20,000 bases of DNA from positions 312,367 to 332,366 of the forward strand of contig MU004204.1 of NCBI GenBank assembly GCA_010093605.1, given 5' to 3'. The stretch comes from Lophium mytilinum (taxonomy: Eukaryota). This document shows, in pieces, positions 342-20,000 of the stretch. Position 1 is the first letter of the stretch. Every line of letters begins with the position of its first letter. Below the pieces are notes generated by a model that was not told the DNA's origin, searched no databases, and saw nothing but the letters and a program-made list of their open reading frames with translations. The position numbers were made by a program, and so were the translations under genes.

Positions 342-1529
342 ATGGCCTCCGCCACCATTGATCGTCTGCTCGCCGAATCCAAAGCGGAGTACCGGCAATT
401 GGGCAAGTCCGGATTGCGTATCTCAGTGCCCATTCTAGGAGCTATGAGCCTGGGCGACAAGAGGACTCTGCCGTGGTCTCTCGAAGAGAAGGAAGCACTG
501 CCCATACTCAAAGCTGCGTACGATAGGGGCGTCAACACATGGGACACGGGTATGAGACTCTACCATGCATGTAGAATGTAAACTTCCACAGCTAACGCCT
601 GGCGCCAGCAAACACCTACAGTAACGGCGAAAGCGAACGAATCATTGCAAAAGCAATCGAAACCTACAAAATACCACGAGAGAAGGTCCTCATCTTGACT
701 AAGTGCTGTAGCTATGTCGGAGAACAACCTGAGCTGCGGGCTGTATATTTCCGCGAGCAATTACCAAAGTTGAAGGATTATGTTAACCATGGAGGACTAT
801 CAAGGGCGGCGATATTCAACCAGGTCAATGCTTCCCTGAAGAGGCTGAACACGGACTACATCGATCTGCTGCAAATACATCGGTACGACAAGGTCACGCC
901 AATTGAGGAGACAATGGAGGCATTGAATGATCTTGTCAGAAGTGGCAAGGTCAGGTATATTGGAGCGAGCAGCATGTGGGCCACAGAATTCGCGGAGATG
1001 CAGTTCGCAGCAGAGAAGCACGGCTGGACGAAGTTTGTGTCTATGCAAAACCAGTATAGCCTGCTATATCGGGAAGAAGAAAGAGAAATGAATAGGTTCT
1101 GCAATAAGACAGGAGTTGGCTTGATTCCTGTAAGTATTTTTGGTATATTCCTCTCTTTCTCAATCACTGACAAGCCTCACACAGTGGGCACCCCTTTGCC
1201 GCGGCCACCTCGCTCGTCCAGCATCCCAATATGGCACCACCGATCGTTCCGCGGGAGAGCAGAAACAGTCTTTCTTTACGTCTGGAACATTGGACGCTGA
1301 TAAAAAGATCATACAACGCGTGGAAGAGCTGGCGGAGAAGCGTGGTTGGAAAATGAGCGAGGTTGCCTTGGCTTGGATCAATAAGAGGGTCTCATCGCCG
1401 ATCATTGGATTTAGCACTGTTGAAAGGATAGATGAAGCTCTTGGAGCACGAGACAAGACTTTGACGAATGAGGAGGAGAAGTATCTTGAGGAGCTCTACC
1501 AACCTCGTGCGATAGAGGGGCATTTCTGA
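342..1529 (+). CDS. Aldo-keto reductase (aryl-alcohol dehydrogenase/Kv-beta-like AKR). 3 exons: 342-549, 609-1129, 1185-1529; ~357 aa
   Basis: Spliced translation gives [13 protein letters not shown]..., [13 protein letters not shown] (catalytic D/Y), ILTKC (catalytic K), [42 protein letters not shown] and WAPLCRG. Introns 550-608 (GTATGA..GCTAAC..CAG) and 1130-1184 (GTAAGT..CTGAC..CAG) keep the frame. Confidence 0.93.
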
Positions 1530-1811
1530 GGTGGAGTGGAGGGAGAAAGTACGCACATATATCACTCTACTAAAGCTGTAGGAAACTGCACCTTCGTTGT
1601 CCTGTAACCTCAGCATCCACCGCCGCCACCATAGATGGTGTCACCTAAGCAACAAGCATCGTAGCAAAAGAGATACAAAATTAAGCAAATTAGAAGGCTC
1701 GTGCACATCTCGTCACTTAAAATCAAAGCACAGCCCAAGGAAAAACCTCTCATCTCATCTATAATCTTACCTCGTGGAATGACTTAGTCCGCTCCGTTAG
1801 CAGCCTCGAGG

Positions 1812-2567
1812 CTACGTACTTCGAGCATCCGGATCCAGGTGCCTACACCGCCAATACCCACAGTAGCAATACTGACCCCCCTGGAAGTACCACGGGCCGT
1901 AATCCACCGTAAGCTGCTCTCCAACCTTCACCGCCCTATTGCCCTTCATCATAATCGCAGTTACTCTCGTCCTCCCCACTCGACCCGTGACAAAACGTGC
2001 CTTCGCGTTGCAAGAGTGGTTCACAAACCGTGCGAAGGACCCTTCATGTGTCGCATCGATAGACCCACATGGCTTCGAGGATATCGATGGACCCAGTGGC
2101 ACTTGAACATGATACCCGACTTCGCTCGTATCGTAAAGATGCCCAGGAGGGTTCAAGACGCCAGTGTACTCACCAATCACCGTACGCGGCCCGATCCTCT
2201 TCTTCGCAAATACACCGACGCCCATACCTTCGACCTCTTTCAGCTCAAAGAGCTTCTCCCACTGTGCTTCCTTGGCACGGAAGGCTTCGAGGCTGCATTT
2301 GCAGCTGTTAGGCTTGGGGGTTTCGTCGCCGCACAAGAGACACATGCCTTCTGTAGTCGTTAGCAGGGTATCTAAGGACGGTTTCCAGGTTTTTGGGCCA
2401 TTCCAGCCTTTTGGGCGGTTGGTGGGCCACTCGGATGGGTTGAAGGTTACGGAGCCGCATTGCCTTGGGATTGTTTTTGAGCGGATATTTTTGGCGATGC
2501 GGCGTCTGCCGGATATGGAGGTGAAGCGGAAGGGCTTGGATTTTGGGGGAGCTTTGAGTCGCACCAT
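1812..2567 (-). CDS. SET-domain protein (putative lysine methyltransferase), 251 aa, intronless, with a small Cys-rich pre-SET region and a post-SET motif
   Basis: SET motifs GMGVGVFA, IGEYTG, IDATHEGSFARFVNHSC and GEQLTVDYG; post-SET CYCGYWRC; upstream CLLC-x9-CKC; ATG has A at -3 (caaaatATG). Confidence 0.9.
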   Translation of the reverse strand: MVRLKAPPKSKPFRFTSISGRRRIAKNIRSKTIPRQCGSVTFNPSEWPTNRPKGWNGPKTWKPSLDTLLTTTEGMCLLCGDETPKPNSCKCSLEAFRAKEAQWEKLFELKEVEGMGVGVFAKKRIGPRTVIGEYTGVLNPPGHLYDTSEVGYHVQVPLGPSISSKPCGSIDATHEGSFARFVNHSCNAKARFVTGRVGRTRVTAIMMKGNRAVKVGEQLTVDYGPWYFQGGQYCYCGYWRCRHLDPDARST

Positions 2568-2976
2568 ATTTTGAATGGCTGATGCTGTCGGTAACCTGGT
2601 GTCCGCTGAGGTCTGTAAGTGCTTTCGTATGTTTCTTATTAGGAATCGAGATCTTCAATGTTGATGGAGAACGGGGTGCTGCGAAGAACGGGGCACAAAA
2701 TGGCGGGTAGACAAAAGAACAAAGACTCGGCTGACAATGAGATGCAGCGTGGCTAGCACCTCTGATAATTGGTCTTTGTGACTTTGTTGCGGACATAGGC
2801 TCTACCCATCAGAGTCTTTGTCCCATTATGTGCAGGTAATCCCTTTCATCGTCAAGCAGATAAGATCGACTGCACGTGGCAGACCTCCGGCAACACAGAT
2901 ACTACCATACGCAGGTAAAGTTGAGGAGAACAACTCCCAAGAAGATAAACCAATCGTCGAATAATCAGCCGCAAAA

Positions 2977-4332
2977 ATGTTCAAGCGAAGCTACTTTTAC
3001 TATATAGATCAAGCAGGTAAGAGGAAAACGGCAAAAAACACCTCACCGGAAGGCCTAAGTAAAGTTATTCCTACGCGTTTCAATGGTCTCAAATTTTTCA
3101 AGAGCCGCCAGTGGGCGGAGTTCAAAAAGCCTGATAACTGGATAGACACATGGCCCCTAACAACGCTCGCAGATGTTGTCACCACTGACGGACTTAGGGA
3201 ACCATTATGCCGAAACTGTGGTAATCATTTTTCAAATATGTGCGATTGCAAAATCAATGATTTTCGGAAGAATTACGAGAAGTGGGACAAACACTATTTT
3301 CTGCAACACACGGGCGACGCGAAGGGCCTCGGGCTTTTCTGCGGAAAAAAATTCGGGAAAGATCTTAAGGGAGGAGTTCTTACTGAAGGTGACTTTGTAG
3401 GTGAGATGACGGGCATTTTGAGACCTCCCGGTTATGACTTCGGTAAGAAAGACGGATACAGCGTTCGCTTCCGGATCGGCAACTGTAGGCGCCCCAGCGT
3501 CTGGGGATACGTGGATCCATATGATACGGGCAGTTACATGAGGTTTGTCAATCACTCCTGTGATTCCAATTGCGAGTTTCAACATAGCAGGGTTGGGAAC
3601 ACCCGCATTAGTTCTGTTGTCGTAAAAAAGGGCAAAACTCTCAGGGCGGGTGACGAAATCACTACGGATTATGGCCCGGGGTATTTCGAAAACATCAAAG
3701 AATGTTATTGCGGGACATCGCAATGTCGGAAGCCACCACAGAACGACGATGATGAAGAGGATGATGACGATGAGAAGTATGATGAGGATGACGAAGACGA
3801 GGATGATAAGGATGACGAAGATGATGATGAGGATGATTGCGATGATGGCGATGATAGGGATGGCGACAGCGGAGAAGGCCCACCTCCAAGTGATGATGAA
3901 ATGGACGTAGATCAAGAGGATGGCGACCTTTCTCCACGGCAACCCAAACCAAGCTCCTACAAGGGAAAGGGTAAAGGCAGAGCTGAGCCTATACAAGAAA
4001 GTGAAGATGAAATGAACATAGATGAAGATGAAGAATCGGACAATGAGATTGGGACCAATGGTACAGGTAAGGGATACCGCGGAAAGAAAACGTACAATAT
4101 CATAAGCAGTCGGTCGGCTCTGGAAGTTTCTCGTAGTCGGAAAACGAAGATCAGTGCGAGCAGCGCCAAACCAACTTCTTACAAGCAGGTGAGCTCTCAC
4201 GCCCGACCAAACCCTGGCGACCTTAAAAGAAAAAGGCCTGCTGTAGAAGAAGAGGCTCGCTCGGACCAGAGCGAGGCCGATGAGGCTCCTCATAGGTCTA
4301 TTAAGAGGTACCGTAGAAGGGGATTCAAATAA
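2977..4332 (+). CDS. SET-domain protein (putative lysine methyltransferase), 451 aa, intronless, with a long acidic tract and a basic C-terminal tail
   Basis: KGLGLFC, VGEMTG, VDPYDTGSYMRFVNHSC and AGDEITTDYG; post-SET CYCGTSQC; upstream CRNC-x7-CDC; then a D/E-rich stretch and NLS-like KRKR and KRYRRR. Confidence 0.9.
   Translation: MFKRSYFYYIDQAGKRKTAKNTSPEGLSKVIPTRFNGLKFFKSRQWAEFKKPDNWIDTWPLTTLADVVTTDGLREPLCRNCGNHFSNMCDCKINDFRKNYEKWDKHYFLQHTGDAKGLGLFCGKKFGKDLKGGVLTEGDFVGEMTGILRPPGYDFGKKDGYSVRFRIGNCRRPSVWGYVDPYDTGSYMRFVNHSCDSNCEFQHSRVGNTRISSVVVKKGKTLRAGDEITTDYGPGYFENIKECYCGTSQCRKPPQNDDDEEDDDDEKYDEDDEDEDDKDDEDDDEDDCDDGDDRDGDSGEGPPPSDDEMDVDQEDGDLSPRQPKPSSYKGKGKGRAEPIQESEDEMNIDEDEESDNEIGTNGTGKGYRGKKTYNIISSRSALEVSRSRKTKISASSAKPTSYKQVSSHARPNPGDLKRKRPAVEEEARSDQSEADEAPHRSIKRYRRRGFK
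3745..3870 (+). repeat. Coding low-complexity (GAY/GAR)n tract encoding poly-Asp/Glu
   Basis: gacgatgatgaagaggatgatgacgat... in frame within the 451-aa SET ORF. Confidence 0.85.
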
Positions 4333-4899
4333 GACCAGAGACAAGTTGAGAGACATAAGCTCGGTAAGGTAAGTACACCAGAATACCCGGCTTAAAGCGT
4401 GCGGGAGGTGAGCATCTGCAAGAGGTAAGTCTTGGTATTGCCGAACTAGTGGTCAGAGATAAAACTCTTTCCGAAGCTGCGTATTAGTGCATTCGGTATT
4501 TATAAATACTCTGCGGTTATGTGATTTTTGAGAACAGTGGGGATCCCCGCCATGCCAAGCAGTTCGTAATGACATGCTGCGACCTCCCTAGTCGCATCAC
4601 AACCACCTGCTTCATTAAGCATATTCGCCATTATCCGACCGGCGAACACGATGATTTACTCAGACCATATGCTTGGCACTTGCCGACGTAGGATGGTGTT
4701 ATGGATACCGCCTGGGCACCGAGGTGAGACTGTCTAGGTGGGAATGGCTTGATTTGAATTCACGGTGTTGCGTTACGTGACACTAGTAGCACGTCTTCTC
4801 CTTATGTTACTCCGGAATCTTCCTTTAAATTGGCGTGCTGCGCGACCGAACTTACTGCTACGACCTTTTTCACACCTTACTCGGTGAAGTGGATGCACA

Positions 4900-7562
4900 A
4901 TGGTTAATTGGTTGTCTATCTTCGCAATTGCGTTGCTATGTGCACGCGGATGGGCCATCACTCCCGAGTAAGTCGCGTACCAAACCTTTTATCTGAAGCG
5001 AAGTCAGCCGTGGAACTTGTCACTTCTTCTGCTACCTAGAGTTGCTTCCGTTGCTGTGCTCTACTCAAATTGCACCCCGCTAACAGGTATGTACATAGGC
5101 AAATGCTCAGCGCCCCACGTCGCTCAGGAGCTGTGCCTAATCCTACTGGCGAATATGCTATATTTTCCGCAAGCTCTTATTCTTTCGAGAAACGAGCATC
5201 ATCGTCGAGCTGGAACTTACTTCATTTAAAGAATGGAAGCATTCAGACGCTCGACGCGCTCACCGAGGACGTTTCTGAGGTTGTGTGGATTTCAGGAAGC
5301 AAATCTGAAGTGATATATGTTAATGCGACTAACGAGGAGATCCCTGGGGGTGTGACCCTGTGGCTTGGTGATCTCTTCGAACCATCAAGGTACCTTTTCA
5401 TCATTTCTCCTACCCTACAATGCAGGACGTCGATTGATTGAGTATATCAGCTTCAAACTAGTGGCTTCTTTACCTGGGGCGTTCTCCGGATTGAAAGTCT
5501 CCAAGACACATTCGGGCGATCTTAAGTTCCTAATCAATGCGTTGGCTTATCCTAATGGTGGGTTTTCGTTGTCCGCTCTGGCGGAGCATGGCACTAATGG
5601 ATTCTCTAGGCACCATATACAATGCCGAGACAGCCTCAACGCCAAAAGGTACCGGCAGATTGTATTCAGACACTTTCGTCCGCCATTGGGACTTTTGGTT
5701 GACTCCTGAACGTTATGCCCTTTTCTCGGGGACTCTCAAGTCAAAAGAAAATCATGCACTATCCCAGGACGGGGTGCAAAACCGCCTTACCAACCTCAAC
5801 TATACTGTAACGCGACCTGAGACCCCTGTTCAAGTAAGGCTCCAGCTAAGCCCACCACATGTCCTCCTCCTAACCCTTCATTATAGCCTTTTGGAGATGA
5901 AGGTGATTATGATCTAAGTCCGGATGGCAAGTGGGTGGCATTCCTTTCGAAAGCTCCCGAACTAGCAAAGGCAAACTACACCGCAAGCTATATATATCTT
6001 GTTCCTTTCGATAGCCCCGAGGTGGCGCCCATAGCGATCAATGGGCCGGGGACACCAGCCCAGGGTATTGGCGCACTTGGGTAAGTTGCAACCCGCCTCG
6101 ACACTCACGGACACTAACGTTGAGAAGCGCTTCTGCGGGGCCGAGATTCTCGCCCGACAGCTCAAAGATTGCATTCTTACAGCAGGATGGTATTAGCTAC
6201 GAGTCGGATAAAAGCAAAGTCTACGTTGCAGCCGTCAGACACTCCGCGCCCTACGGTGGAGGGTGGTCAGCCATTGCCGGTGATTGGGACCGGTCCGTCG
6301 ACTCTCTTGCATGGAATCCAGATGGGAAGTCACTACTAGTTTCTGCGTCAGATCTTGGAGAGGAAAAGCTATTCACTCTTCCCATTGACGCGCCATCCGA
6401 TTACGAGCCTCGTAACTTTACCACCGCGGGCACGAACGTTGCAGACTTCCACGTCTTGCCCGATTCTAGCGTTCTGGTGTCCGGTAATAGCATTTGGTCG
6501 TCTAGAGACTTCTACATCAAGTCTGAGAAAACCACAAAGTATTTGTTCTCCGCCACCACGACAGACCCTGAGCTTGAGGGCTTGAGCTCCGATGATGTGG
6601 AGCAGTTCTACTTCATTGGCGCTTTGGGGATACCGATCCAGAGCTGGATAATCAAACCCAAGGGGTTTCAGGCCAATGCCACTTATCCTCTAGCATTCAT
6701 CGTCCATGGAGGACCTCAAGTAGGTTGTGATTCCCGTTTCTATCTCCCCTCGCTGAGCTAGACCAAAGGGTGGCCATTACAACTCCTGGAGTACACGCTA
6801 GAACTTCAAGGTGTTCGCCGATCAAGTAGGTCATATCTTCCCTGCGATTTGATTGGTTCCAAGAAATTGACTTCCTAGGGATACGTGGTTATAGCTCCCA
6901 ACCCCACAGGCAGTTCAGGATGGGGGCAGTTCCTGCAAGACTCCATCCAGAACCAGTGGGGTGGTCATCCCTACGACGATTTGGTCAAGGCCTGGGACTA
7001 CATAGAAGCTAACCTGACATATATCGACACCGACCGCGCCGTTGAACTCGGAGCAAGTTACGGAGGATACATGACAAACTGGATCCAAGGCCACGACCTC
7101 GGAAGGAAGTTCAAAGCCTTAGTCGCGCACGACGGTCTGGTAAGCACCCTCGGTGCTTATGCTACGGAGGAGCTTTGGTTCACTCAACACGAGTACAATG
7201 GCACCCTCTGGGATAATCGCGAGAATTATGAGAGATGGGATCCTGGTACGTTACCAACATCTCACTCCATGTTTGTGACCCCAACTGACTTCGCTCAAGC
7301 TGCCCACATCAAGAATTTTAGCACCCCGCAGTTTATTATTCATAGTTCGGAAGACTACCGGCTGCCGGAGACAGAAGGGATTACCATGTTCAATTATCTT
7401 CAGTCGAGAGGCGTGCCGTCCAGATTTCTCAGCTTCCCGAACGAAAATCATTGGGTCTTGAAGCCAGAGAACTCGTTGCAATGGCATGAGAATGTGCTGG
7501 GATGGATTAATCATTACTCGGGTATTGGTGGTCCTCTTAGTGATGATGCCATTGGCAGTTGA
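4900..7562 (+). CDS. dpp5: Secreted dipeptidyl peptidase V (peptidase S9), ~720 codons, with one in-frame TAG at 6799-6801. 9 exons: 4900-4967, 5099-5389, 5451-5557, 5610-5833, 5887-6080, 6128-6719, 6769-6825, 6879-7245, 7300-7562
   Basis: Signal peptide [19 protein letters not shown] followed by [13 protein letters not shown]. Motifs [58 protein letters not shown]; catalytic triad GASYGG / DYRL / NENHWV. All 8 introns are GT-AG with branch-like motifs, and the exon sum of 2163 nt is divisible by 3. Functional status is uncertain because of the stop. Confidence 0.9.
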
Positions 7563-8481: not shown

Positions 8482-10792
8482 TCAGGCGGCCGATGAGACG
8501 CTCGCCCTTCGATTCTTCTTACCGAGATACGTACTATCCGGCAGCATGTTGAGTTTGTCTTCGCGCTTATCAAGCCTCTTGTTCTGGAGCCAGAACAGCA
8601 CACCACCAACAGCTGCCAGAATAGCAACGGTAGCGTAATTCCAGACAAGCAAAGGATCGTCACTCAGCGAGACAAATGCCTGGCCGATGGCGTTACTGAA
8701 CGCCGACATGAAGTGCCAGTAGCTAGTCACCAGCGAACGCATGTTTGTAGGCGCCTTGGTGAAAGCGTACTCCAGGCCGGTGATGGATGCGAAAATCTCC
8801 GAGAAGCCGATGAGGACGTAGGGCACGGTCTGCACCCAGACGTTTATGGGCGCGGCACCCTCCTCGCAAGTGTTCATGTACTTGCCGCATGGGCCGAGCT
8901 TGTAAATGTAGTGCTGGATGATGGTTGCGGAAATCATGGCGCACGAGGCTAGGCCGAAGCCCAATGCGATTCGCTTGACAGGGGTAAATTTGATACCCTT
9001 CTTGCGAAGGAAGGGGTAGAGGAAGTTGTCCACGATTGGAATGAAGATAACCAAAGAGATTCTGGCCATGGGATTAGCTTATAATGTGTCATAATATTTT
9101 GTATCTCACTTACGGGTTCAAGTTGGTGATGATGTCGTTAGGCACGCCATGGAGCTCCATGGTTGCCGCCTGAGACGTGAGGTTGTTGTTCATTTGGTTG
9201 TAAGTAAGCCCTATAGAGCTTGTTAGAATGAGAGCTTTCGAAAAGCATTACGACGACTGACAATAGAGGGGAATCCATGTGAAAACTCGGCACGCTTTCA
9301 ATCCACGGGCAACCTGGTCAACCCAAGGATCGTCAAAGGTCATCCAAGCTGGTTTTCTTTCGCCAAGATGGCTAGGCTTCACGTCATTCCAGAAGTTGGG
9401 GTCCGTAAAGTTCTTCTTGCTATAGAACGCATTGTGAGTGGCAAATCGGACAGCTAGGGAGGCGTCGACTTACAGTGTGACTGGGTTAAATGACCATTTA
9501 CCTTTCTGCGCCAGTCCCCACAATAGCCAGAAATTCTTTAGCACTGATCCCGTTGGAGGGCTTCTGGTGTACTTGTTCCGGCAAGCGTACAACACAATGG
9601 GGCAGAAGCAAAACATAATGGTTGGTAGGAGGAAGGCACACCAGAATCCAACGTATTTCTCGACATAGACCATAGATATCTGACCTGTCAAGCTGCCAAC
9701 ATTGACCATCATATCTTACACATATTAGCGGGGTTTTGTGAAGAAGGGGGAATGGATTAGGACAGATACTGAATCCTCTGGTATTGGCTGTCCTGGAGTG
9801 CCGCTTGAATCGTCTTTTGACACAATTCCAGAACAATGACACCAGAGGACTCTGGTAAGTGTATTAGGACCTTACGTACAAAAGTATAAGAAGATCCGGG
9901 CGATGGTAATGTTTGGGTCCGAGATTTGGCGTTCACCGGTCTTAGGGTCTATCACGATCTTTGGCTTGGTCTGCTTATATTGCTCCGCAATCAAGGGAGA
10001 CACGTTTGCCCTATGGTTGTGTTAGTCAAATTGTCATACAATAGTGGTTATCAAGAAAGACTCACTTGAAGGCTCCTGTGCCGAGACCAAGAAGAATGAG
10101 TCCGGGAATGAAAGCGCCGAGGGCATGACCGCTAGCGATGACAGATGGAACGGCAGAGACGACGATGACGATGTGGCCAAGGATAGCGACGGCAACGGCG
10201 ACCATAATGGTGTTGAAGCGGCCGAGATATTCATCCGCAACGTAGGCGCCGATTAATGGGGTAGTGTAAGCCCAGAACGAGTTGACTTTGAGGCGTTAAT
10301 TCTACCAAAAGCCAGGGAAGAAAGCTATAGGGGTGACTACTCACAGGTCCCGAGCCCAAATGACGCTCTTTGGCCCATATCCAAGGCTCCCGACTGGCCG
10401 TTCGCGCCACTTTTACCAGTAGTCGATCCAGGAGGCAACGGGCGCTGAATGTAATTGGTATCTTCAGTGAAACGTTAGTACTCTGCTTTGCTATGTAAGT
10501 TCACAGAGTTGTTGAATATATACTCACAAAGCACTTGACAGCCGTAATAGCCAAATCGCTCGCACATCTCCGTGAACGCGATCGTATACGCCACCCACGG
10601 AATCTTGCCAGAGACACGAGTGAGCGTCGCTAGCTCCTCTTCGGTAGGGTCTTCCCCAGAATCATCGTCCGGACGGTTCGAGTCGGCATGGCTAACGCTG
10701 AATTCCTTCTCGCTTTTGGCATACTCCGCCAGCCCTTTCGGGGTGCGGGCCATGGCCACCTCCTCGATGTTTGTGCCGGCTGCCGCAGACAT
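8482..10792 (-). CDS. ptr2: POT/PTR2-family proton-coupled di/tripeptide transporter, ~602 aa. 8 exons: 10792-10528, 10461-10345, 10285-10066, 10010-9880, 9714-9474, 9419-9262, 9210-9114, 9061-8482
   Basis: EMCERFGYYG (ExxERFxYYG motif), GAYVADEYLGRFNTI, GTGAFKANVSPLIAEQ, FYMMVNVGSL (PTR2 signature) and SEIFASITGLEYAFTKAP. Intron phases are consistent and the exon sum is 1809 nt. Confidence 0.93.
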
Positions 10793-12670
10793 GGTAGTTT
10801 TGGACAACAGGGGAGCTTCTGCAGGAGGAAGATCTAGACATGGGAAGAGGGTAGAGAGAATCTTTTATAACTTCACGGGAGTAACTGGGGCAAAACATCA
10901 TGGTTGCTACTGTAAAGAGAAGGTAGCAAAGCAGTCGCGAGATTGTTGTGTTACATTGCAAAGAGCGGCGACCAACGACGTCCGACCGTCTTGGGAGACA
11001 GGCTTTGGGAAGCCAAACGTCTTTACAAGGATTGATAGAGAAAGCAATCGAGGCGCCCAAGGCTTGGCATATATTGGCACATTGTCGATCTTCTTGGGTC
11101 TTGGCGCAGGAAGCTCCCCAGAATAACGCATGGTGCAGGGCTAAGGCCGGATCAAAGCGCGAACTGTGCCGCCGGTGATAAGACGCTATTCACTGCCAAG
11201 GCGCACTGCAACCGAGTTCACGGCGGAGGGTGGCCAGATGCTCAGCAGCGCAATCGAGTTTCCTGAACGAGGGTCGACGACGAGCAGGGCGACCGGCAAG
11301 GTGCCCGCGAATGGCGCCAGCCACCCGGATGCATCGTGCCGCCAGGGTGGCCGTTTACCAAGAGTACGGGGGCGGAAAATCTTGGCGCTTCTTGGCTTAT
11401 CTTCACGGGTTCTACAGTAGAATATATCTCTATGCCCGAGACGCTGTCACTGATATCGCTCCGCTTTGGGCACTCTCCGGGATTTGCTGGTTGGTGGAGG
11501 CGGGGATGCGCATGCTTCAAATATTCTAGAACAGTGCCAGGAGGCCGGGTCGGAGGCCTTCCAGAATGTCTAATATCTTTGCAGGCCCTGTGTGGATGGA
11601 AGCATGGGATTTCAACAAGGCAGGCACGGGACATTTACGAGGCCGTAAGCGTTACCATGTCATACTGGAATAGGAAAATGCGCGACAGGCGAAAGAAAGC
11701 ACGCGATGATACAAGAAAATACAAGGGATGTGAGCATATAGAACTCCAGACAGCGATGAACAGAATAGTGAGAGATGAGGAAGGAAAGTACGGTGTACAG
11801 GTCGGTGCAAGCCCGTGAGAGCAGACGAGAGTAACGGCAACAGGCTTGATAGCGCCCTATATTATCAATGCTCTATACAATTGAATGAGGGTTGCCATGG
11901 AAGACGAAAACACATCCCTTTGGAGTGATGTGCGAAGGGTGGGCCCACTCGAAGAATCGGGTACTCCGTCTTACTCACGTGACAACCGTCCCACCAGGGC
12001 TCCTCTCCCGGAGCCCCGAGCTCTTTTGCGCTAATTGGTATTCTGAACCATGCAGAATGCGGAAGGTGGAAATACGCCAGAACACAGCCAGAAGACGCAA
12101 GGCCTTGGCATTTCGAAGTTGAATTGCGATCATGTCACTTTTGAGCAGCCTGCTTTCTCCGCGCTGCTTTGCCATCACTTCACACTTCCGCTCTGGCAGA
12201 GAACGCTACACCAGCTCACTACTGCCTACAGCGACCCACACATCATCTTACTGATGCGACAGCATAGATCTAACGCTCTCAAGGTGTATCCGGAACTCAC
12301 TCCCGTCTGTAATAGTTCAACCATGTCGTATGTTAACCCGCAAAAATAGCCTTTCACGTAGAGCAAGTTTAGCAAGCCTCCATAACCGACTTGTAGTATC
12401 TTCGTGAGTACTACAGTGTGGCAACTTAGACGGAAGAAGACGGGCTTTGGTGACGGGAGGCCTGAGCGGGAGGCCTTAAGAGCATTCTCACTTCTTATAG
12501 GTTACACAGGGGTGGCTGTTTCGAGTTAGATGCACGTTGGGGGCGTTATTATAGGGCTAGCCAAGCTTAAGCTTGATCCATCTGCGACCATCAATCACAA
12601 CAACACTGCTATAAAGCCTTGCACTCGCCACGTTAAGCATTTCGCAGCCTTTACGCTTCTTCTCGAGACA

Positions 12671-12716
12671 CATGCTGCACCGTCTAATTGAACCATGCTG
12701 CACCGTCTAATAGAAC
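12671..12716. repeat. 23-bp tandem duplication (2 copies, 1 mismatch)
   Basis: catgctgcaccgtctaattgaac / catgctgcaccgtctaatagaac. Confidence 0.9.
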
Positions 12717-12751
12717 CCATACTACGTCAATAAGACAAAGGTTCGTCGACT

Positions 12752-13725
12752 ATGGACAATAGGCCAGGTGAAGGTTCGGAGAGAAGCGCTGAGACGTGGC
12801 GGAGGTTTCGAGACTCTTTCTATAGGACTAAGAATCCCTTTAACAAAACTTCATTCTAGAGATCCGATTACGATCCGTATGGATTCATCGACAATTCTCT
12901 CGCAAACCTATGCCTTCGCAGTCCGTGCAGACTTTCTTATAGGGAACAATAATTTGTTGGGTGTAAAACAGCGTGCATTCCTTAGTAAAGGTCCCTATAA
13001 TACACACATTAATTTATATAAGGACTATTAGAATCCTATCTAGAGAACTTAATTTTTTTACTATATCTTAATACCGCCTAACTTAATAATTAGTAAGGCT
13101 ATTAATACTATTATAGAGGCTATATACTAACTTTTTCTAGTATTATAGTACCTTTAAAAGCCTTTAATATCTATATTTCTATATAGTTAATATATAGTAA
13201 AGTCTACTATATCTTCTTTAATTAGAAGGCCTCTACCTCTACTATTAGTACTCTAGATAAGGCTATTTCTAATTCTCTAGATATATTAATACTAGCTTCT
13301 AGAAAGGTACTAAAGGCTTTAAAGGCTATAGTAGCGCCTATAAAGGCGCCTATATCTATAAAGGCGCCTATACCTATAAAGGCTTCTATAAAAGTATAGG
13401 CATATATAATAAAGTAGGCCGCCTAATATAAAGAAAAGGCGTACTTAATAGAAGAGAAAAACCTATTATAGAATAAAGTAGAGGCTTAAGTTACTAAATA
13501 TCTATTAGCTACTACTATATATAAGGCTATAGATAAGAAGCCTAAAGCTATAAAAGGCTCTATAAAAGGTAGTAGCGCCCTTTTAAATACTATAGTAGCT
13601 TCTACTAACTATAGAAAAGGCTCTACTACTAGTTATAAAAGGGGCTCTACTACTACTAAGTTAGTAGCTAAGCGCCTAGTAGCTCTTAAGAAAAGGCGCC
13701 CTAATATTACTATTAATTTATCCTA
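12752..13725 (+). pseudogene. RIP-inactivated ORF of unknown product, beginning at the edge of the AT-rich block
   Basis: Frame from ATG 12752 reads MDNRPGEGSERSAETWRRFRDSFYRTKNPFNKTSF*RSDYDPYGFIDNSLANLCLRSPC..., and the stops I read are TAG/TAA. The same frame continues through a peptide repeat KAIVAPIKAPISIKAPIPIKASIK at ~13322-13393. Confidence 0.5.
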
Positions 13726-13873
13726 GGGCTAGAGTATTAGTAGTACTTTATATAACTAGCACCCTAGTTTACTTAAGGCTAGATATATATATATTAAGAC
13801 TCTAAATAAGTATAAGTATTAAAATATAGAGAATAGAATAGACTCTAATCTATTAAGAAATAGTAATAGTAAA

Positions 13874-15300
13874 ATACCGCCTAGCTAAAAGCTATAAGAT
13901 AGGTACTATAAGCGTTACGCTAATAAAATTATAGTAGATATAGAGAAAGTAGATAAGAAAGAAAAAAAGAAAAAGAAGAATAATCTACTAATATTATCTA
14001 AGCTAGGTAAGAAGATAAATAAGAAGCTTAAGCGCTTTATAGAATAGTTTATAGTAAAGTATCTTAATAGAACTAGTAGGCGCCTCTCTATAAACTAGAT
14101 AAATAAGATTAAGGTAAAGGCGTATATAAAGAAAAGGAGGTAGTTATTTACTAAGATAGACTTAACTATATCTAATATTAAGATAATATTTATGCCTATA
14201 AAGTAGCTTATTAATAACTTTATTATACTTATATTATTTAAGTTATTTATAAATAGTAAGACTATTAGCTAAACTATATAGCTAAATAGTATATATATTT
14301 AGCTTAATAGTAGGGTTATTAAAAAGAAGCTTAAGAAGATAGTAGAGAGAGCTATTTAAAAGGGTAACTATAATACTATTTATAGAGTTATTAAGTATAT
14401 AGCTAGCATTAGAATATTTACTAGAAGAGAAGAAATGCGCTATTATAACCTAGAGGACTTCTTAATAATAGAGTTTACCTAAGTATATACGCTAATAGAT
14501 ATAATATAGAGGAACTATCCGCGCTTAATAATTATAGTTATTTTTAAGTATAAGGTCTTATATAATACCTAGGCGCCGCCAGCTAAGAGAAAGAGATTTA
14601 AGTAGCTTAATAGCTTATTACCTGCGTCTATATTAGGTAAGAGGTACTATACTAGTAAGCTATTAAAATAGTAGTATATCTAACTAGGTTACTTTACTAA
14701 TAGAGAAGATCTTAAGCTTAAGATTATAAAGAACTAGATATATATAGGTAGTAATTACTTAAATAAGAATAATAGTTACTTTATTAATAAGGGTAAGTAG
14801 TACTATATTCTTCTTCTAAAGCACTATAAAATATAAGTAAATACTATACTTAGTAATAATACTATAATTTATACTTCTTTTATAAAGCTACTCTAAGAGC
14901 TAATAGAAAATAGGCTAATTAATAAGTAATACTAGAGGCCCGTAAGAACTATATAGGTATAGTTAGTATAGTAGATAGTATAAAATACCTAGAATACTAT
15001 AGCTAGCTTTATAAATATATAGATAAAGATAATATAGATAAAGATAGCTATATTAATATCTAAGATAGACTTTAACTAGCCTCTATAGTAGCTATAGTAG
15101 GCTTTTTTTCTATTCTATTCTTAGCTACTACTATACTAGGGGGCTTCTACGCCGCTAAACCCCTATACTATAGCTAGATATACTTCTTCTCTATCTACTT
15201 CTACTCTATAGCCTATTTCTACTCTATAGCCCTTTATAGCGCCTCTTTCTTATACGCCTATTATTTAACCTAGAAGCTTAAGCCCTATATTAGAAAAATC
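13874..15300 (+). pseudogene. RIP-inactivated ORF relic of unknown product: acidic N-terminus, inferred Cys/His motif, Q/P-rich C-terminus
   Basis: A single frame from ATA(ATG?)-CCG-CCT at 13874 runs through an AAR/GAR-rich tract (13940-13985) to codons at 14735-14836 that back-mutate to W-x-C-x4-C-x6-C-x7-H-x2-L-x7-W. Boundaries are approximate. Confidence 0.4.
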
Positions 15301-16340
15301 TAAAACTATAAAAGTTAGAGCTATTAGTACTTAGTAGTAAACAGCGTAAACTTTTAGTAAACTATATAAATTATATAATATCTATATAAACTACTAGCGC
15401 AGGTAATATTACTATATAAACTAGTAGTAGTTTACCTATATACTATATAGCCTAATAATACTTAATTATTATCTATTATTTTAAACTATTAATAATTTAG
15501 TTCTATAGTATCTTTTACCTAATTAGCCTTAGTAGTACTAAAGCTAATATATATATACCCTATATATAATACTACCTATATTCTACTATAAAATAATTCT
15601 ATTTACTACTCTTTCCTCTCTATAGTAGTGCAAGGCGGAGGTAGAAGTAAGTAGAAATAGTAAGTACTTAGGCTAGAATATCTAATCTTTATTCTATAAA
15701 TAGTTAGTATAGTAAAGTTAGGGCTATAGTAGTTAAAAAGTAGATTTAATAGATATATAGAGAATAGGTAGAAAAGATATAATCTATTTATTCTATAATT
15801 TAGTGCTAGGTCTAGCTTATAAATTATAATTAGAATGCTTAATATATTCTTAGGTAGACTTTTACTATATTACTACTAAGACCTATTATTTAAGAGTTAG
15901 GCTGTAGTATATAACTATCTATAAATAATAAAAAGTATATAACTATTCTACTACTAATATAAGCTCTAGTAGTAGTTTCTTATATTTATATTATAGAATA
16001 GCCTCTAGTATTATAGCTATAACGCTACTGCCTCTATAGCTTCTTCTTTCTATTTACTTCTTCTATATTTCTTATTTCCCTCTATATTAGTATACTTTAC
16101 TTCTTCTATCTATATTTTAGGTTACTACTTCTCTATTTATAGTCTCTTCTATTATACTTCTAACCTTAGAAGTTAGAATACTATTATTTTATAACCTAGC
16201 CTATAGTATACTTATATACTAGAAGATAATAAAAATATATACTCTCTATCTAGTAGGGTAGTTATAGAACCTAAAATATACTTAAAGAAATAGGCTAGAG
16301 TCTCTTTTAAAATATAAGAATATAGAGAGTATACTATAAT

Positions 16341-16380
16341 AATTATAGATAATCTTATATAATTCTAGATAATCTTATAT
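16341..16380. repeat. 20-bp tandem duplication (2 copies)
   Basis: aattatagataatcttatat / aattctagataatcttatat. Confidence 0.75.
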
Positions 16381-16711
16381 AGTACTATAAGAAGAGTTAG
16401 AGATATTAGAGTAGAGATAGCTTTATTTTCCCTCTTTCTACCGCGTTATTATATAGTAGATAGTTATCTATTACTAGTATATATAAGGGCTAGGTTATCC
16501 CTATAATACTAGATTAAAGTATATCTAGCGCTAGTAATAGAGTATATATTCTATTTACCCGCTTATTTTCTAAGAAAAGTAGGGCTAGAGAAGTAGTAGT
16601 TAGGGTAGAGTTAAAAGCTAGTAGAAAATATAAATATATAGTTATATATAGTAGTTAGAAAGATTAAGAGCTATATATATAAAAGATTATACTAGAACTA
16701 AGGCGCTATTA

Positions 16712-16855
16712 TATAGAGTAGAGTAGAAGGAATAGAAAAACTTAGTAGAAAAAAAATTCTATAAAGTAGAGTAGAAGAAATAGAGAAACCTAGTAGATAA
16801 AAAAGCTTATAGAGTAAAGTAGAAGAAATAAAGAAGCTTAGTAAATAATATAAGC
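16712..16855. repeat. 48-bp tandem repeat, 3 degenerate copies
   Basis: Units start at 16712, 16760 and 16808 (tatagagtagagtagaaggaatagaaaaacttagtag...). Differences are mostly G/A or C/T transitions. Confidence 0.85.
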
Positions 16856-18190
16856 TAGTAATACTAGAGTATATTACCTTTATCTAATATAGCTCTATAG
16901 AACTATACTAGTTTAACTACTAACCTAGATATTAGTATACTATTAGCTTTCTATTATAGTAGATACTATTAGTAAGCTATACCTATATACTATCTCTTAT
17001 TCTCTATATTCTAGCTTTTTAAATAAGTTTCTACTAGCTTTAGCTTCTACTATAATTTATTAGTATATGTAATTTTAATATCTACTATATTTTAAATAGT
17101 TAGCCTTAAGTTAATCTCTACTATAACTCTTCTACCTTTTTAACTCTTACTACTTTCTACTACTCTATAGTATAGAGAAAGAAATGCAGGGTAGGCTTTT
17201 ATATCTATAGAATAGAGAAGAATAGTCCTATTATATATATAGGTAGGCGCTAGAAATTTAAGGCTTAGGTGTATATCTTTTAACTAATAGTTACTATATA
17301 CTTTTCTCTTAAGTATACTATTAAAATCTTATATAAGTATATCTTTATAGTAGTATACTATTATTACTAATAGTTATTCTTAATTAGCCTTAGGTTTAAT
17401 CCCTTATATTATAGCTTAACGCGCTAGGTATTATAACTATAGAATATCTCTAAATAGGTATTATAAGACTAGTAGTATTTTTAAGTATATATAGTTTAGG
17501 GGGTTTATATTAAAAGTAGATAGATAAGTAGTTTTTAAGTTAGAGCTTAGAGTAAGAATAGGCTTTAAGATATAAGGTATATATATATACTACGCATCTA
17601 TTAAAAGTTAACTTAATAGTAGTATAAAAATATAGAAGGTATATAGAGAGTATATATAGATAGACTTATATAGTTCTATTTAAGGCTGCTTTCTACCTAT
17701 ATATATACTAGAAAATTAGTAATTTCTTAAGAAGGTACTTACTATACTAAGTATATACGCCTTCTATATCTACTTTTAAATATCTCTTAGATAATATTAG
17801 AGGAGTAGAAAATAGTAGAGTTAGTATTCTTTTCTTTATTTCTTACTATATAAGTATATATAATTTCTAAGGCCTTCTTAATACTAGTCTAAGCTATAAT
17901 TAGGCCTATTTTAGCCTTATATAAGGCTGCCTCCACCGCCTTTAAGCTATCTAGGTCTTCTATAGATAATACCTCCTCTATAGTATTTTCTTTATTCTAG
18001 TTAACTTTCTTTATCTAGTTCTTTCTATTATTAAAGTAGTATATATTTAATTTATCTTTATCTTCTATAAGGTTTATAGGCTCTAGTTTATTAGATAGCG
18101 CTTTATATTTATTCTTTAAGGTTACACCTTAAGTCTCTTATTCTAATACTACTATTTCTAAGTTCTTCTCTCTAGCCTTAGCTATTACTA

Positions 18191-18352
18191 AGGTCTCTAG
18201 TAATAATAGCGCCTTTTATATACTTCTAGTCTTCTAGTATATTAAGATCTATAGCTTATCTATAAAGATATAGGTCTCTAGTAATAATAGCGCCGCTTAT
18301 ATACTTCTAGTCTTCTAGAATATTAAAATCTATAGCTTAACTATAAGAATAT
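18191..18352. repeat. 81-bp tandem repeat, 2 copies
   Basis: aggtctctagtaataatagcgcc...tatatacttctagtcttctag...tctatagctta occurs at 18191 and 18272. Confidence 0.88.
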
Positions 18353-20000
18353 ACTTAGTATAAATTTAGACTTCTAGTTAGAGATTATAGTTATTTTTTT
18401 CCTCTTTTTCCCTATATATAGCTATATAGTAGCTAATAGCCTTACCTAAAGTAGTATAATTTAAGTAGAATAATATTAGGTTTATAAGGCTAACTTTAAA
18501 TATAGAACTATCTTTAGAGTTAATAAAGTAGGTATATATTAGTAAGAGAACTAAATATAGATTAGTAAATATATAATCTTCTTATATATAGTAGTAGTAT
18601 ATATTTTAGATCTTAGTAGTAGTAGAAGGTCTTTTTAATATCTATATTAATAATTATAGATTAGAATATACTTAGTAGAATAGGTATTAAAGTGTAGCTT
18701 ATATATATAATTAGTACTATACTACTAGTAATATTAAGTATATTTATAAATATATTAACTTAAAGTCTATAGCCTTTATATAGCTATACTACTATACCTT
18801 CTTTATCTCTAGAGTATTTAAAGCTACTCTTATCTAGAACTATAGGTACTATAAGCTTCTTATACTAGTAAATAGTTAGTAGATATAGATAGAAAAGTAG
18901 TAGATAGACTTATATAGGCCTAATTCTTAATAAAGAAGCTCTTAGAGCCCTCTTTATAGGCTTTCTTTACTACCTCTAGTATAGTTTTTATCTCTAGCTT
19001 ATTAGACTAGCCGCCCTTTATATTACCTAATTCTTAACTTAGAACTAGGTATAGTAAATACTTATATATAGACTAGATAAGTATATTATATTTAATTTTA
19101 AAGTTAGTAATATCTTTTTAAGAGTGCTAGAAAAATATAGTAGCTTTCTCTAGATTATCTCTACTATATATAGTATATAGCGCTTTAAAGTAGTCTATAT
19201 AGCTATTAATATAGATAGTAATAGTAAGGTCTACTAGTCTATTCTAGTAGACTACTATCTACTCTATTATAGTAGCGGAATTATAGTAACTTAAGCTATT
19301 AAGCTATTAGTAATATAGTAAGAAAGAGTATAGTAAGGCTTATATATAAGAGTAAGGTTAGAGTTAGATTTTACTTACTAGCCTACTTAGTTATTAGTAG
19401 AGAAGGTAAAGGTCTTTACTAGCTATAATATAATACGCGCCTACTAGGTAAAGTAGGTTTATAGCCTTAGCTTAGGTAATAGATAATACTATATAGCCTA
19501 AAAAGTTAAATAGTTAAAATAAACTTTATACTATTATAAAAGGGTAATAATCTCTAATTATAATTAATTATATTAAGTATTAAAGGTAATAGAATAGAAG
19601 CTGCGGGCAATACTAGGCTCTATAAAGGGCGGTTTTCTAGTATTAGAGCCTAAAGGTAAAGAATAATATATACTACTTTAGAATTAGAGAAAGAATTTAG
19701 GTCTATTAAATAGGGTAGTAGGTCTACTAATAGAATACCTCTTAATATTATTAGAAATGTAGCCCCTAATATTAGCTACCCTAGGTATTACTTTAAATAG
19801 TTTATAGAGTATAAATCTTAACTAGTATAACTAACTTATATATACCTGCGCGGTATTTAAATAAGTAGTAGCTCTACTTAATAAGAAGGGGTATAATAGA
19901 ATTAAAATAGGTAAAATAATATAAGTAGCGGGCTAACTCTAATTATAAAAGGGAGATATATATAATCTCTAATTATAATTAATAATCTATAAAAGAGAAG

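Follow-up and report, generated by a model that had tools for sequence, protein, structure and literature searches.

A head-to-head pair of SET-domain genes in Lophium mytilinum as probable old duplicates within a compact, intronless and fast-evolving SET family

We analysed a 20,000-nucleotide stretch of the Lophium mytilinum genome (GCA_010093605.1, contig MU004204.1, positions 312,367 to 332,366 of the forward strand; hereafter the window), in which two genes for SET-domain proteins, SET-A and SET-B, diverge from a 409-bp spacer. This arrangement raises the question of whether the two genes form a lineage-specific methyltransferase module, as an initial annotation of the sequence had proposed, or are members of a wider family that happen to lie side by side. 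We favour the second answer. SET-A and SET-B are probably old local inverted duplicates in an uncharacterised, compact, intronless and fast-evolving SET family of Dothideomycetes, each working alone as a nuclear protein-lysine methyltransferase (probability roughly 0.6). The head-to-head layout is then best read as a by-product of duplication and not as a required module.

The annotated coordinates and strands of the two genes and their spacer were exact (Table 1). SET (PF00856) was the sole Pfam domain in each protein, at residues 116-224 of SET-A (E = 2e-13, 50.9 bits) and 137-233 of SET-B (E = 2e-10, 41.8 bits), against a cut-off of 22.4 bits. BLASTP aligned residues 13-242 of SET-A with 7-251 of SET-B at 80/250 identical positions (32%, E = 1e-40), which bears out the proposed paralogy over the whole core, and the motifs listed in that proposal are present in the alignment. 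At the DNA level the genes are 47% identical, with 28% identity at third codon positions and a longest exact run of 7 bases, in keeping with the earlier view of an old or fast-evolving duplication. Repeat-induced point mutation (RIP) has an identity threshold, for which the two genes are too diverged; no RIP signature was found in either gene and their GC content is normal, so that the suggested divergence beyond RIP also holds.

Each gene is a single open reading frame (ORF), and a scan of both for splice-signal patterns found nothing. None of the 15 listed splice joints (17 in total) from an RNA-type run, X1, falls within SET-A or SET-B, which is weak evidence given the thin, short cover there. 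The run consists of short contigs, which are RNA-like since GT-AG joints are present and which cannot rank genes. The public model of SET-B, P0009 (364 aa), begins at Met88, leaving out the first 87 residues (2977-3237) and with them conserved positions such as two of the four pre-SET Cys. Because the family residues F7, G14, W46, P52, W59, P60, C78 and C81 precede Met88, we set the start of SET-B at 2977, where the start codon context is CAAAAATG. N-terminal truncation seemingly also affects the annotated members P0010 and P0011, and hides the N-terminal segment of the family.

Word-based searches with SET-A or SET-B alone gave only 7 and 1 matches, respectively, and miss the family, so that an 'orphan' verdict from such a search is an artefact. 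When 1.84 billion representatives were searched instead with a profile built from seven sequences, 131 clusters matched at E ≤ 1e-30. We examined 154 sequences, 6 from the L. mytilinum genome and 148 from databases, of which 105 span the whole core. Species names were attached to 10 of 30 proteins looked up, and all 10 proteins come from Dothideomycetes; the genera include Mytilinidion, Glonium, Lepidopterella, Paraconiothyrium, Delitschia, Cucurbitaria, Trypethelium and Aaosphaeria. The family likely ranges further, into the wider Pezizomycotina. The six copies in L. mytilinum lie at four sites (SET-A/SET-B, single copies on C7 and on C13, and two tandem copies on the same strand of C5), and two further family queries gave the same six. 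All six are single ORFs. A scan of metagenomes with the pattern [NS]WTRF[IV]NH yielded 53 loci, of which 25, L089 among them, were left out because low GC, a split by introns or a weak match made their membership doubtful; the remaining 28 members fall into 13 distinct groups, counting the borderline L069, and each is one ORF over the available part. Intron loss is thus family-wide, and intronlessness is no sign of inserted cargo.

Residue conservation was counted over the 105 full-core sequences in SET-A numbering. The N-terminal segment is marked by F13 (84), G20 (81), W47 (82), P52 (97), W61 (96) and the P62 equivalent (95). In the pre-SET, C76 (105), C79 (104) and C89 (92) are followed at position 91 by Cys or His in 93 sequences (59 and 34), and this fourth ligand divides the family into CxC and CxH types. 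The SET core retains G116 (103), G118 (97) and Y152 (101), the S-adenosylmethionine (SAM) and catalytic positions R180 (105), N183 (99), H184 (104), C186 (105) and Y223 (105), and R-V-G at 196-198, which is among the positions conserved family-wide. Post-SET C234 (105), C236 (105) and C241 (102) complete the pattern, with CxCx4C in SET-A, SET-B and 98 of the 105 members. Both proteins of the pair keep GxG, RFxNHxC, the catalytic Tyr (A223/B232) and the post-SET zinc ligands (C186 plus CxCx4C). A subclade of 12 members (P0053, P0057, P0060, P0061, P0063, P0075, P0084, P0085, P0088, P0095, P0096 and P0100) has D, E, N, K, A or F in place of the fourth pre-SET ligand.

The family profile aligns to G9a such that Y134 corresponds to Y1067, position 221 to F1152 and Y223 to Y1154. 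In G9a, Y1154 is essential, Y1067F permits trimethylation and F1152Y limits the enzyme to monomethylation (Wu et al. 2010, PMC2797608; here and below, statements on papers cited by PMC number refer to the parts of each text available to us). The F/Y switch position is Ile, Val, Ala or Leu in 100 of the 105 sequences, and is V221 in SET-A and T230 in SET-B. Position 134 is Tyr in 85 members and non-aromatic in 15, including the unpaired C7 copy (Leu). The charge of the i-SET region is mixed (-3 in SET-A, +3 in SET-B, family median -3). Clusters resembling a nuclear localization signal (NLS) were matched by a loose pattern in 62 of 99 database members, and KRKRP and KRYRRR in the basic tail of SET-B are presumably signals of this type.

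We compared the pair with the other SET genes of the genome, where 30 of 35 SET matches were examined and separate genes presumably represent Set1, Set2, Ash1, Dim-5, Ezh2, Set9 and Set3/4, judging by their motifs. Approximately unbiased (AU) tests were run on the SET region, with each canonical group as one row, often a single exon (Dim-5 being one single-exon row). Grouping of SET-A or SET-B with Set2, Dim-5 or Set1 was rejected in 6/6 tests (p ≤ 0.009): p-AU was 3e-9 (SET-A) and 4e-4 (SET-B) for Set2, 0.0025 (SET-A) and 0.0011 (SET-B) for Dim-5, and 0.007 and 0.009 for Set1, whose N-SET and RRM domains were also not found by Pfam. Ash1 falls with Set2 in the AU-test tree; Ezh2, present in the trees by its C-terminal exon only, lies on the canonical side (95/94), and SET-A and SET-B have no CXC match. 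Another tree was drawn with Set9 as outgroup, a rooting that is unreliable, and is read as unrooted. As judged from sequence, the two proteins appear to be a distinct variant of histone-type SET enzymes, apart from the Set1, Set2 and Dim-5 groups, which agrees with their initial description as non-canonical. SMYD or split-SET (Cluster 3) and Rubisco-LSMT types were set aside, the SET domain here being continuous, ~110 aa long and without MYND or a long insert. At another place in the genome are two SMYD-like SET genes at a distance of 3 kb from each other (L026 and L035, G000:C18:660235 and 663036).

An AlphaFold2 model of SET-A, on which all structure comparisons are based, was confident over the whole protein including the N-terminal segment (predicted local distance difference test score 93.8, 68-sequence alignment). 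Its closest solved folds were tied, namely SUVH6 (Z 15.8), G9a (15.3), NSD2 (15.3), SETD2 (15.0) and ATXR5 (14.9), with 167-188 residues aligned at a root-mean-square deviation (rmsd) of 2.6-3.9. Set2, ASH1L and GLP also stand at the top of the Foldseek list, and SUV420H1 (Z 10.1) and SMYD chains (Z 8.0-8.7) are further away. The model predicts a proline-rich loop in place of the i-SET helix described for histone enzymes (PMC2797608). Clusters of 70-102 members, mostly from Ascomycota, were found in the ESM Atlas, where the best structure match covers residues 8-249 (TM 0.83).

In the metagenomes the family is found as single genes, several of them at stable positions. A second SET gene was present at 0/53 metagenome loci, and a partner at none of the 10 distinct family groups, out of 13, whose upstream sequence reaches 2 kb or more, so that the divergent pair, for which a search elsewhere had been proposed, did not recur in these other subclades. 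None of the neighbours in the window recurs at 16 other family loci. Where family genes of different fungi share neighbours, the SET proteins are far less alike than the genes around them: 37% identical against 92% for the adjoining PrpD (L057/L087), 40% against 80% for ribosomal L5 and 54-78% for a ubiquitin hydrolase (L046/L047), 39% against 78% for an AMP-binding enzyme and 51% for another gene (L055/L059), and 40% against 73% for a YOP1-like gene, 85-88% for MGM101 and 54% for a WD40 gene (L060/L064). Identities of 37-40% between positional orthologues, against 51-92% for neighbours, indicate that the family evolves fast, and rapid change at a stable position argues against mobile cargo. 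This pattern would fit a gene under relaxed or conflict-driven selection, two regimes that it does not separate. A family gene thus adjoins PrpD, which encodes methylcitrate dehydratase, in two different fungi, and in L087 its opposite flank is taken by a citrate synthase-type gene. In one further locus, a HET-domain gene (L061:7253-9514) comes immediately after the family gene.

SET-A has an orthologue, P0003, in Mytilinidion resinicola (77% identical). The SET-B core was searched twice over protein lengths 140-790 with SET-B itself as the only match; M. resinicola has no detectable annotated SET-B, an unannotated copy being possible. In the best trees SET-B is sister to SET-A plus P0003 (SH support 85; 73/87; 287/400 bootstrap trees), and if this sisterhood is right the duplication is older than the split from M. 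resinicola. SET-B has the longer branch (1.33-1.66), a 9-aa insertion and, after residue 256, a tail of 195 aa, whereas SET-A is compact and ends without such a tail. The description of both proteins as compact with a four-Cys pre-SET therefore fits SET-A, and for SET-B only as regards the four-ligand pre-SET. A run of at least ten D/E residues occurs in 0/99 database members, unlike in SET-B.

Given fold and residues, each protein would bind SAM and methylate a target lysine, with the post-SET zinc site closing on the substrate and the small aliphatic switch residue (V221/T230) leaving space for di- or trimethylation. The basic NLS-like ends and the acidic tract of SET-B may point to chromatin or another nuclear substrate, and fast evolution suggests that the proteins are used under limited conditions only, for example in the sexual cycle or in defence. 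Several observations weigh against our reading of the pair as old duplicates that act singly. SET-B is without the first active-site Tyr. A grouping of SET-A with the C7 copy was not rejected (p-AU 0.28), so that the sisterhood of SET-A and SET-B is not firm. The metagenome pattern would miss SET-A and SET-B themselves, and the singletons therefore come from other subclades, while the C5 copies are a second adjacent pair in the genome and show that pairs recur. Grouping with the long-branched Set9 was not rejected either (p-AU 0.32 for SET-A, 0.20 for SET-B). Finally, X1 gave no cover in the spacer bin, and its cover of SET-A and SET-B is no better than that of the non-coding stretch 11257-12019.

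The difference at the specificity position suggests a cooperating pair under one shared promoter, in which SET-A (Tyr134) would set the first methyls and SET-B (Met144, acidic tail) would extend them to trimethyl or recruit histones, by analogy with wild-type and Y641-mutant EZH2. The G9a Y1067F trimethylase (PMC2797608) offers a precedent, as do EZH2 Y641 changes, which increase trimethylation in cells where one allele is still wild-type (PMC3868588), and the divergent spacer and two frames kept intact despite saturated third positions are consistent with it. We nevertheless consider such cooperation unlikely: a non-aromatic residue in 15/105 members, the unpaired C7 copy among them, means that a Met144-type change needs no partner, SET-A has an orthologue where none was found for SET-B at 140-790 aa, and the other loci are singletons. 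With four more copies in the genome, a family spread across many Dothideomycetes and these same singletons, the proposed lineage-specific two-gene module was not borne out. The long branch, Met144, the insertion, the repeat-built acidic tract and the lack of a detected orthologue could also mark SET-B as a duplicate that drifts or has weak catalysis, surviving by chance or through binding without catalysis, with SET-A as the sole functional enzyme. This is rather improbable, since the 451-codon frame of SET-B keeps all eight zinc ligands, RFxNHSC and the catalytic Tyr, and motifs kept at 28% third-position identity indicate long purifying selection. Taken to its furthest, the family could be an unrecognised class of fungal chromatin writers with arms-race-like evolution, driven by the sexual cycle or by defence against viruses or transposons, and depositing a lysine mark outside the repertoire of the known fungal enzymes. 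The pair could then be a one-promoter relay of a Tyr primer and a Met trimethylase with an acidic histone-binding tail, as with wild-type and Y641-mutant EZH2 in lymphoma; this idea, again built on analogy, is distinctly speculative.

A substrate other than chromatin, either a peptide natural product or a cytoplasmic protein, is a minority possibility that we take seriously. GigC, a fungal SET-domain protein, methylates a lysine of a RiPP (a peptide made by ribosomes and modified after translation), the epichloecyclin of Epichloe (PMC10540207), the i-SET charge is mixed, and the predicted lack of an i-SET helix would give SET-A a peptide groove unlike that of histone enzymes. Against this, the neighbours scanned have no DUF3328 or kexin match, no precursor-like ORF was seen by eye at 1500-5150, family genes of other fungi adjoin housekeeping genes, the nearest folds are those of histone enzymes and NLS-like clusters are frequent. 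That the family is a fast-evolving Set9/SUV4-20 offshoot methylating H4K20 is suggested by two trees in which the Set9 of this genome stands among family rows, by the AU result and by a small switch residue and YG..YF motif common to both. We read this placement as attraction, because the Set9 branch is long (2.17), its post-SET is CxCx2C and it is without GxG and ID..xG; in the fold comparison SUV420H1 reaches Z 10.1 and SUV39/SET2 types 15-16, the family profile gives Set9 50.8 bits and Set2 93.2, and an H4K20 offshoot is accordingly most improbable. There is only a very slight chance that the pair came as mobile or retro-inserted cargo to its place between housekeeping genes close to heterochromatin, as had been entertained at first. 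Intronless genes, four unlinked genome sites and an AT-rich block 8.7 kb off would suit it, but intronlessness is a family trait, the repeat scan found no terminal repeats flanking the pair, and GC is normal without RIP. Moreover, the other genome copies lie in normal-GC, gene-dense DNA with no AT-rich DNA within ~4-5 kb, relatives keep stable syntenic sites, and just 2 SET matches, both weak and partial, came from viral contigs.

Table 1. Features of the window, in positions of the 20,000-nucleotide stretch.
Feature	Position	Strand	Details
Aldo-keto reductase gene	342..1529	plus	PF00248; 2 introns, joints 548/608 and 1129/1185; convergent on SET-A
SET-A gene	1812..2567	minus	251 aa, single ORF; basic N-terminus, W/P-rich N-terminal segment, pre-SET knuckle, SET, post-SET
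SET-A SET domain	1896..2222	minus	G116/G118, Y134, R180-F-V-N183-H184-S-C186, V221 (F/Y switch), catalytic Y223
SET-A pre-SET	2295..2342	minus	C76-x2-C79-x9-C89-x-C91; probable single Zn site
Divergent spacer	2568..2976		409 bp; candidate shared promoter
SET-B gene	2977..4332	plus	451 aa, single ORF; start at 2977
SET-B pre-SET	3208..3249	plus	C78-x2-C81-x7-C89-x-C91
SET-B Met144	3406..3408	plus	Replaces active-site Tyr (SET-A Tyr134; G9a Y1067 / EZH2 Y641 equivalent)
SET-B acidic low-complexity tract	3745..4056	plus	aa 257-360, net -46, made of GAT/GAC repeats
SET-B basic tail	4057..4329	plus	Net +15; NLS-like KRKRP and KRYRRR
S9 peptidase gene (dpp5-like)	5103..7562	plus	PF00326; 6 listed joints, one upstream of ATG
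POT/PTR2 peptide transporter gene	8482..10792	minus	PF00854; 7 joints
AT-rich RIP-mutated block	12990..20000		GC 0.26, composite RIP index 1.75

The spacer contains short repeats at chance level only, and we regard antisense ORFs at 3232-4356, 2308-2796 and 2046-2363 as shadows cast by the SET frames. The initial annotation, from which the peptidase has its label 'dpp5', had contrasted two intronless genes with three intron-rich neighbours; the first part stands, and the second suits the peptidase and the transporter but not the aldo-keto reductase with its two joints. Two unlisted joints would, by length arithmetic, fit the last two peptidase introns. Upstream of the transporter, the RNA-type run has a 763-nt contig at 11257-12019, where the only ORF scanned (11432-11818) had no Pfam match. 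The AT-rich block begins behind two ordinary genes ~8.7 kb from SET-B and runs on towards the end of contig C24 (L043, largely N); a short direct repeat, catgctgcaccgtctaat, has two copies at 12681-12720, ~300 bp ahead of it. A gene for the CAF-1 large subunit (L042:890-1978) lies on the same contig ~10 kb upstream of the SET pair.

At the other sites in the genome, the C5 copies (L040, G000:C5:1502500-1512400) are of CxH type and adjoin a long WD40-repeat gene (HET-E-like by eye; WD40 only by Pfam), a YJU2 gene and an ORF resembling APH. Of these two copies, one has an RS-rich tail and is nearer to P0013 of another fungus than to its own neighbour. The C7 copy (L039, G000:C7:1892500-1902400) lies between a small stand-alone BRCT gene and RSE1. 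The gene beside the C13 copy (L041:8318-9481) has a 35% identical homologue, L059:11256-12242, at a distant metagenome locus ~5 kb from a family gene, possibly through old synteny or by chance.

Literature searches gave no description of the family, which subscription papers, figures or unread supplements may contain. Surveys list many SET groups without known function (PMC9692433, PMC9676040), and in the available parts of Veerappan 2008 (PMC2474616) and an Aspergillus survey (PMC9676040) uncharacterised groups are named without detail. None of 10 family accessions appears in Cluster 1 of Table S3, as available to us, of Han et al. 2025 (PMC12581908), a list of histone-type SET genes from 1038 genomes. 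MoSET6 was dropped as a relative, being described as similar to S. pombe Set6 (PMC4521839), and a virus-induction lead for N. crassa set-6 (PMC7648066) could not be tied to the family.

The interest of these genes lies at the family level, the pairing alone being of modest importance. Fungal chromatin research centres on six or seven conserved SET enzymes, yet here is a family with the fold and catalytic residues of histone enzymes whose accessions, as far as checked, are missing from a list of histone-type SET proteins from 1038 genomes. A 251-aa single-exon enzyme with a confident model eases substrate discovery, other fungi have syntenic members in single copy that can be knocked out cleanly, and SET-A and SET-B let Tyr and Met be compared in a natural setting at a position known to govern specificity.

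Among known systems, the SUV39/G9a/DIM-5 (KMT1) enzymes share with the family the pre-SET/SET/post-SET layout, the CxCx4C post-SET and the catalytic Tyr, and G9a is close by profile (E 7e-26) and, like SUVH6, by fold. However, the KMT1 pre-SET is a 9-Cys cluster, whereas the family has 3-5 Cys in the pre-SET window in 96/105 sequences and SET-A and SET-B give no PF05033 match; KMT1 enzymes also have Phe at the switch where the family has Val or Ile, and an i-SET helix that the SET-A model lacks. The Set2/Ash1/NSD (KMT3) enzymes are as near in profile (SETD2, E 6e-26) and in the NSD2 and SETD2 folds, and the last pre-SET Cys of the family align with the end of their AWS, but the family is without Pfam AWS, WW and SRI. 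Set9 is set apart by its post-SET spacing and missing core motifs. ATXR5/6, the plant H3.1K27 monomethylases, likewise combine a compact N-terminal extension with the SET fold (rmsd 3.2 over 178 residues for ATXR5), whereas ATXR5 is 18% identical and the family has no PHD, a Cys post-SET and no Tyr at the switch. GigC resembles the family, by description only, as a fungal SET-domain protein outside the core histone enzymes, and differs in sitting in a RiPP cluster, of which none was seen at the window (PMC10540207). A further described group is Group 7 of Ding et al. 2022 (PMC9692433), 31 Pezizomycotina-specific, SET-only genes to which the available text gives no function, present as patchy single copies in Pleosporales, Eurotiomycetes and Leotiomycetes. 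Its sole recognised domain is SET, as in the family, and Aaosphaeria arxii carries one gene of each kind; by contrast, Cucurbitaria has the family member P0049 and no Group 7 gene, with 3 of its 32 SET genes ungrouped, and the parts of the text covered mention no pre-SET knuckle, intron loss, fast evolution or expansions. Compared by description and per-species counts, in place of accessions, Group 7 may be the family described here or part of it.

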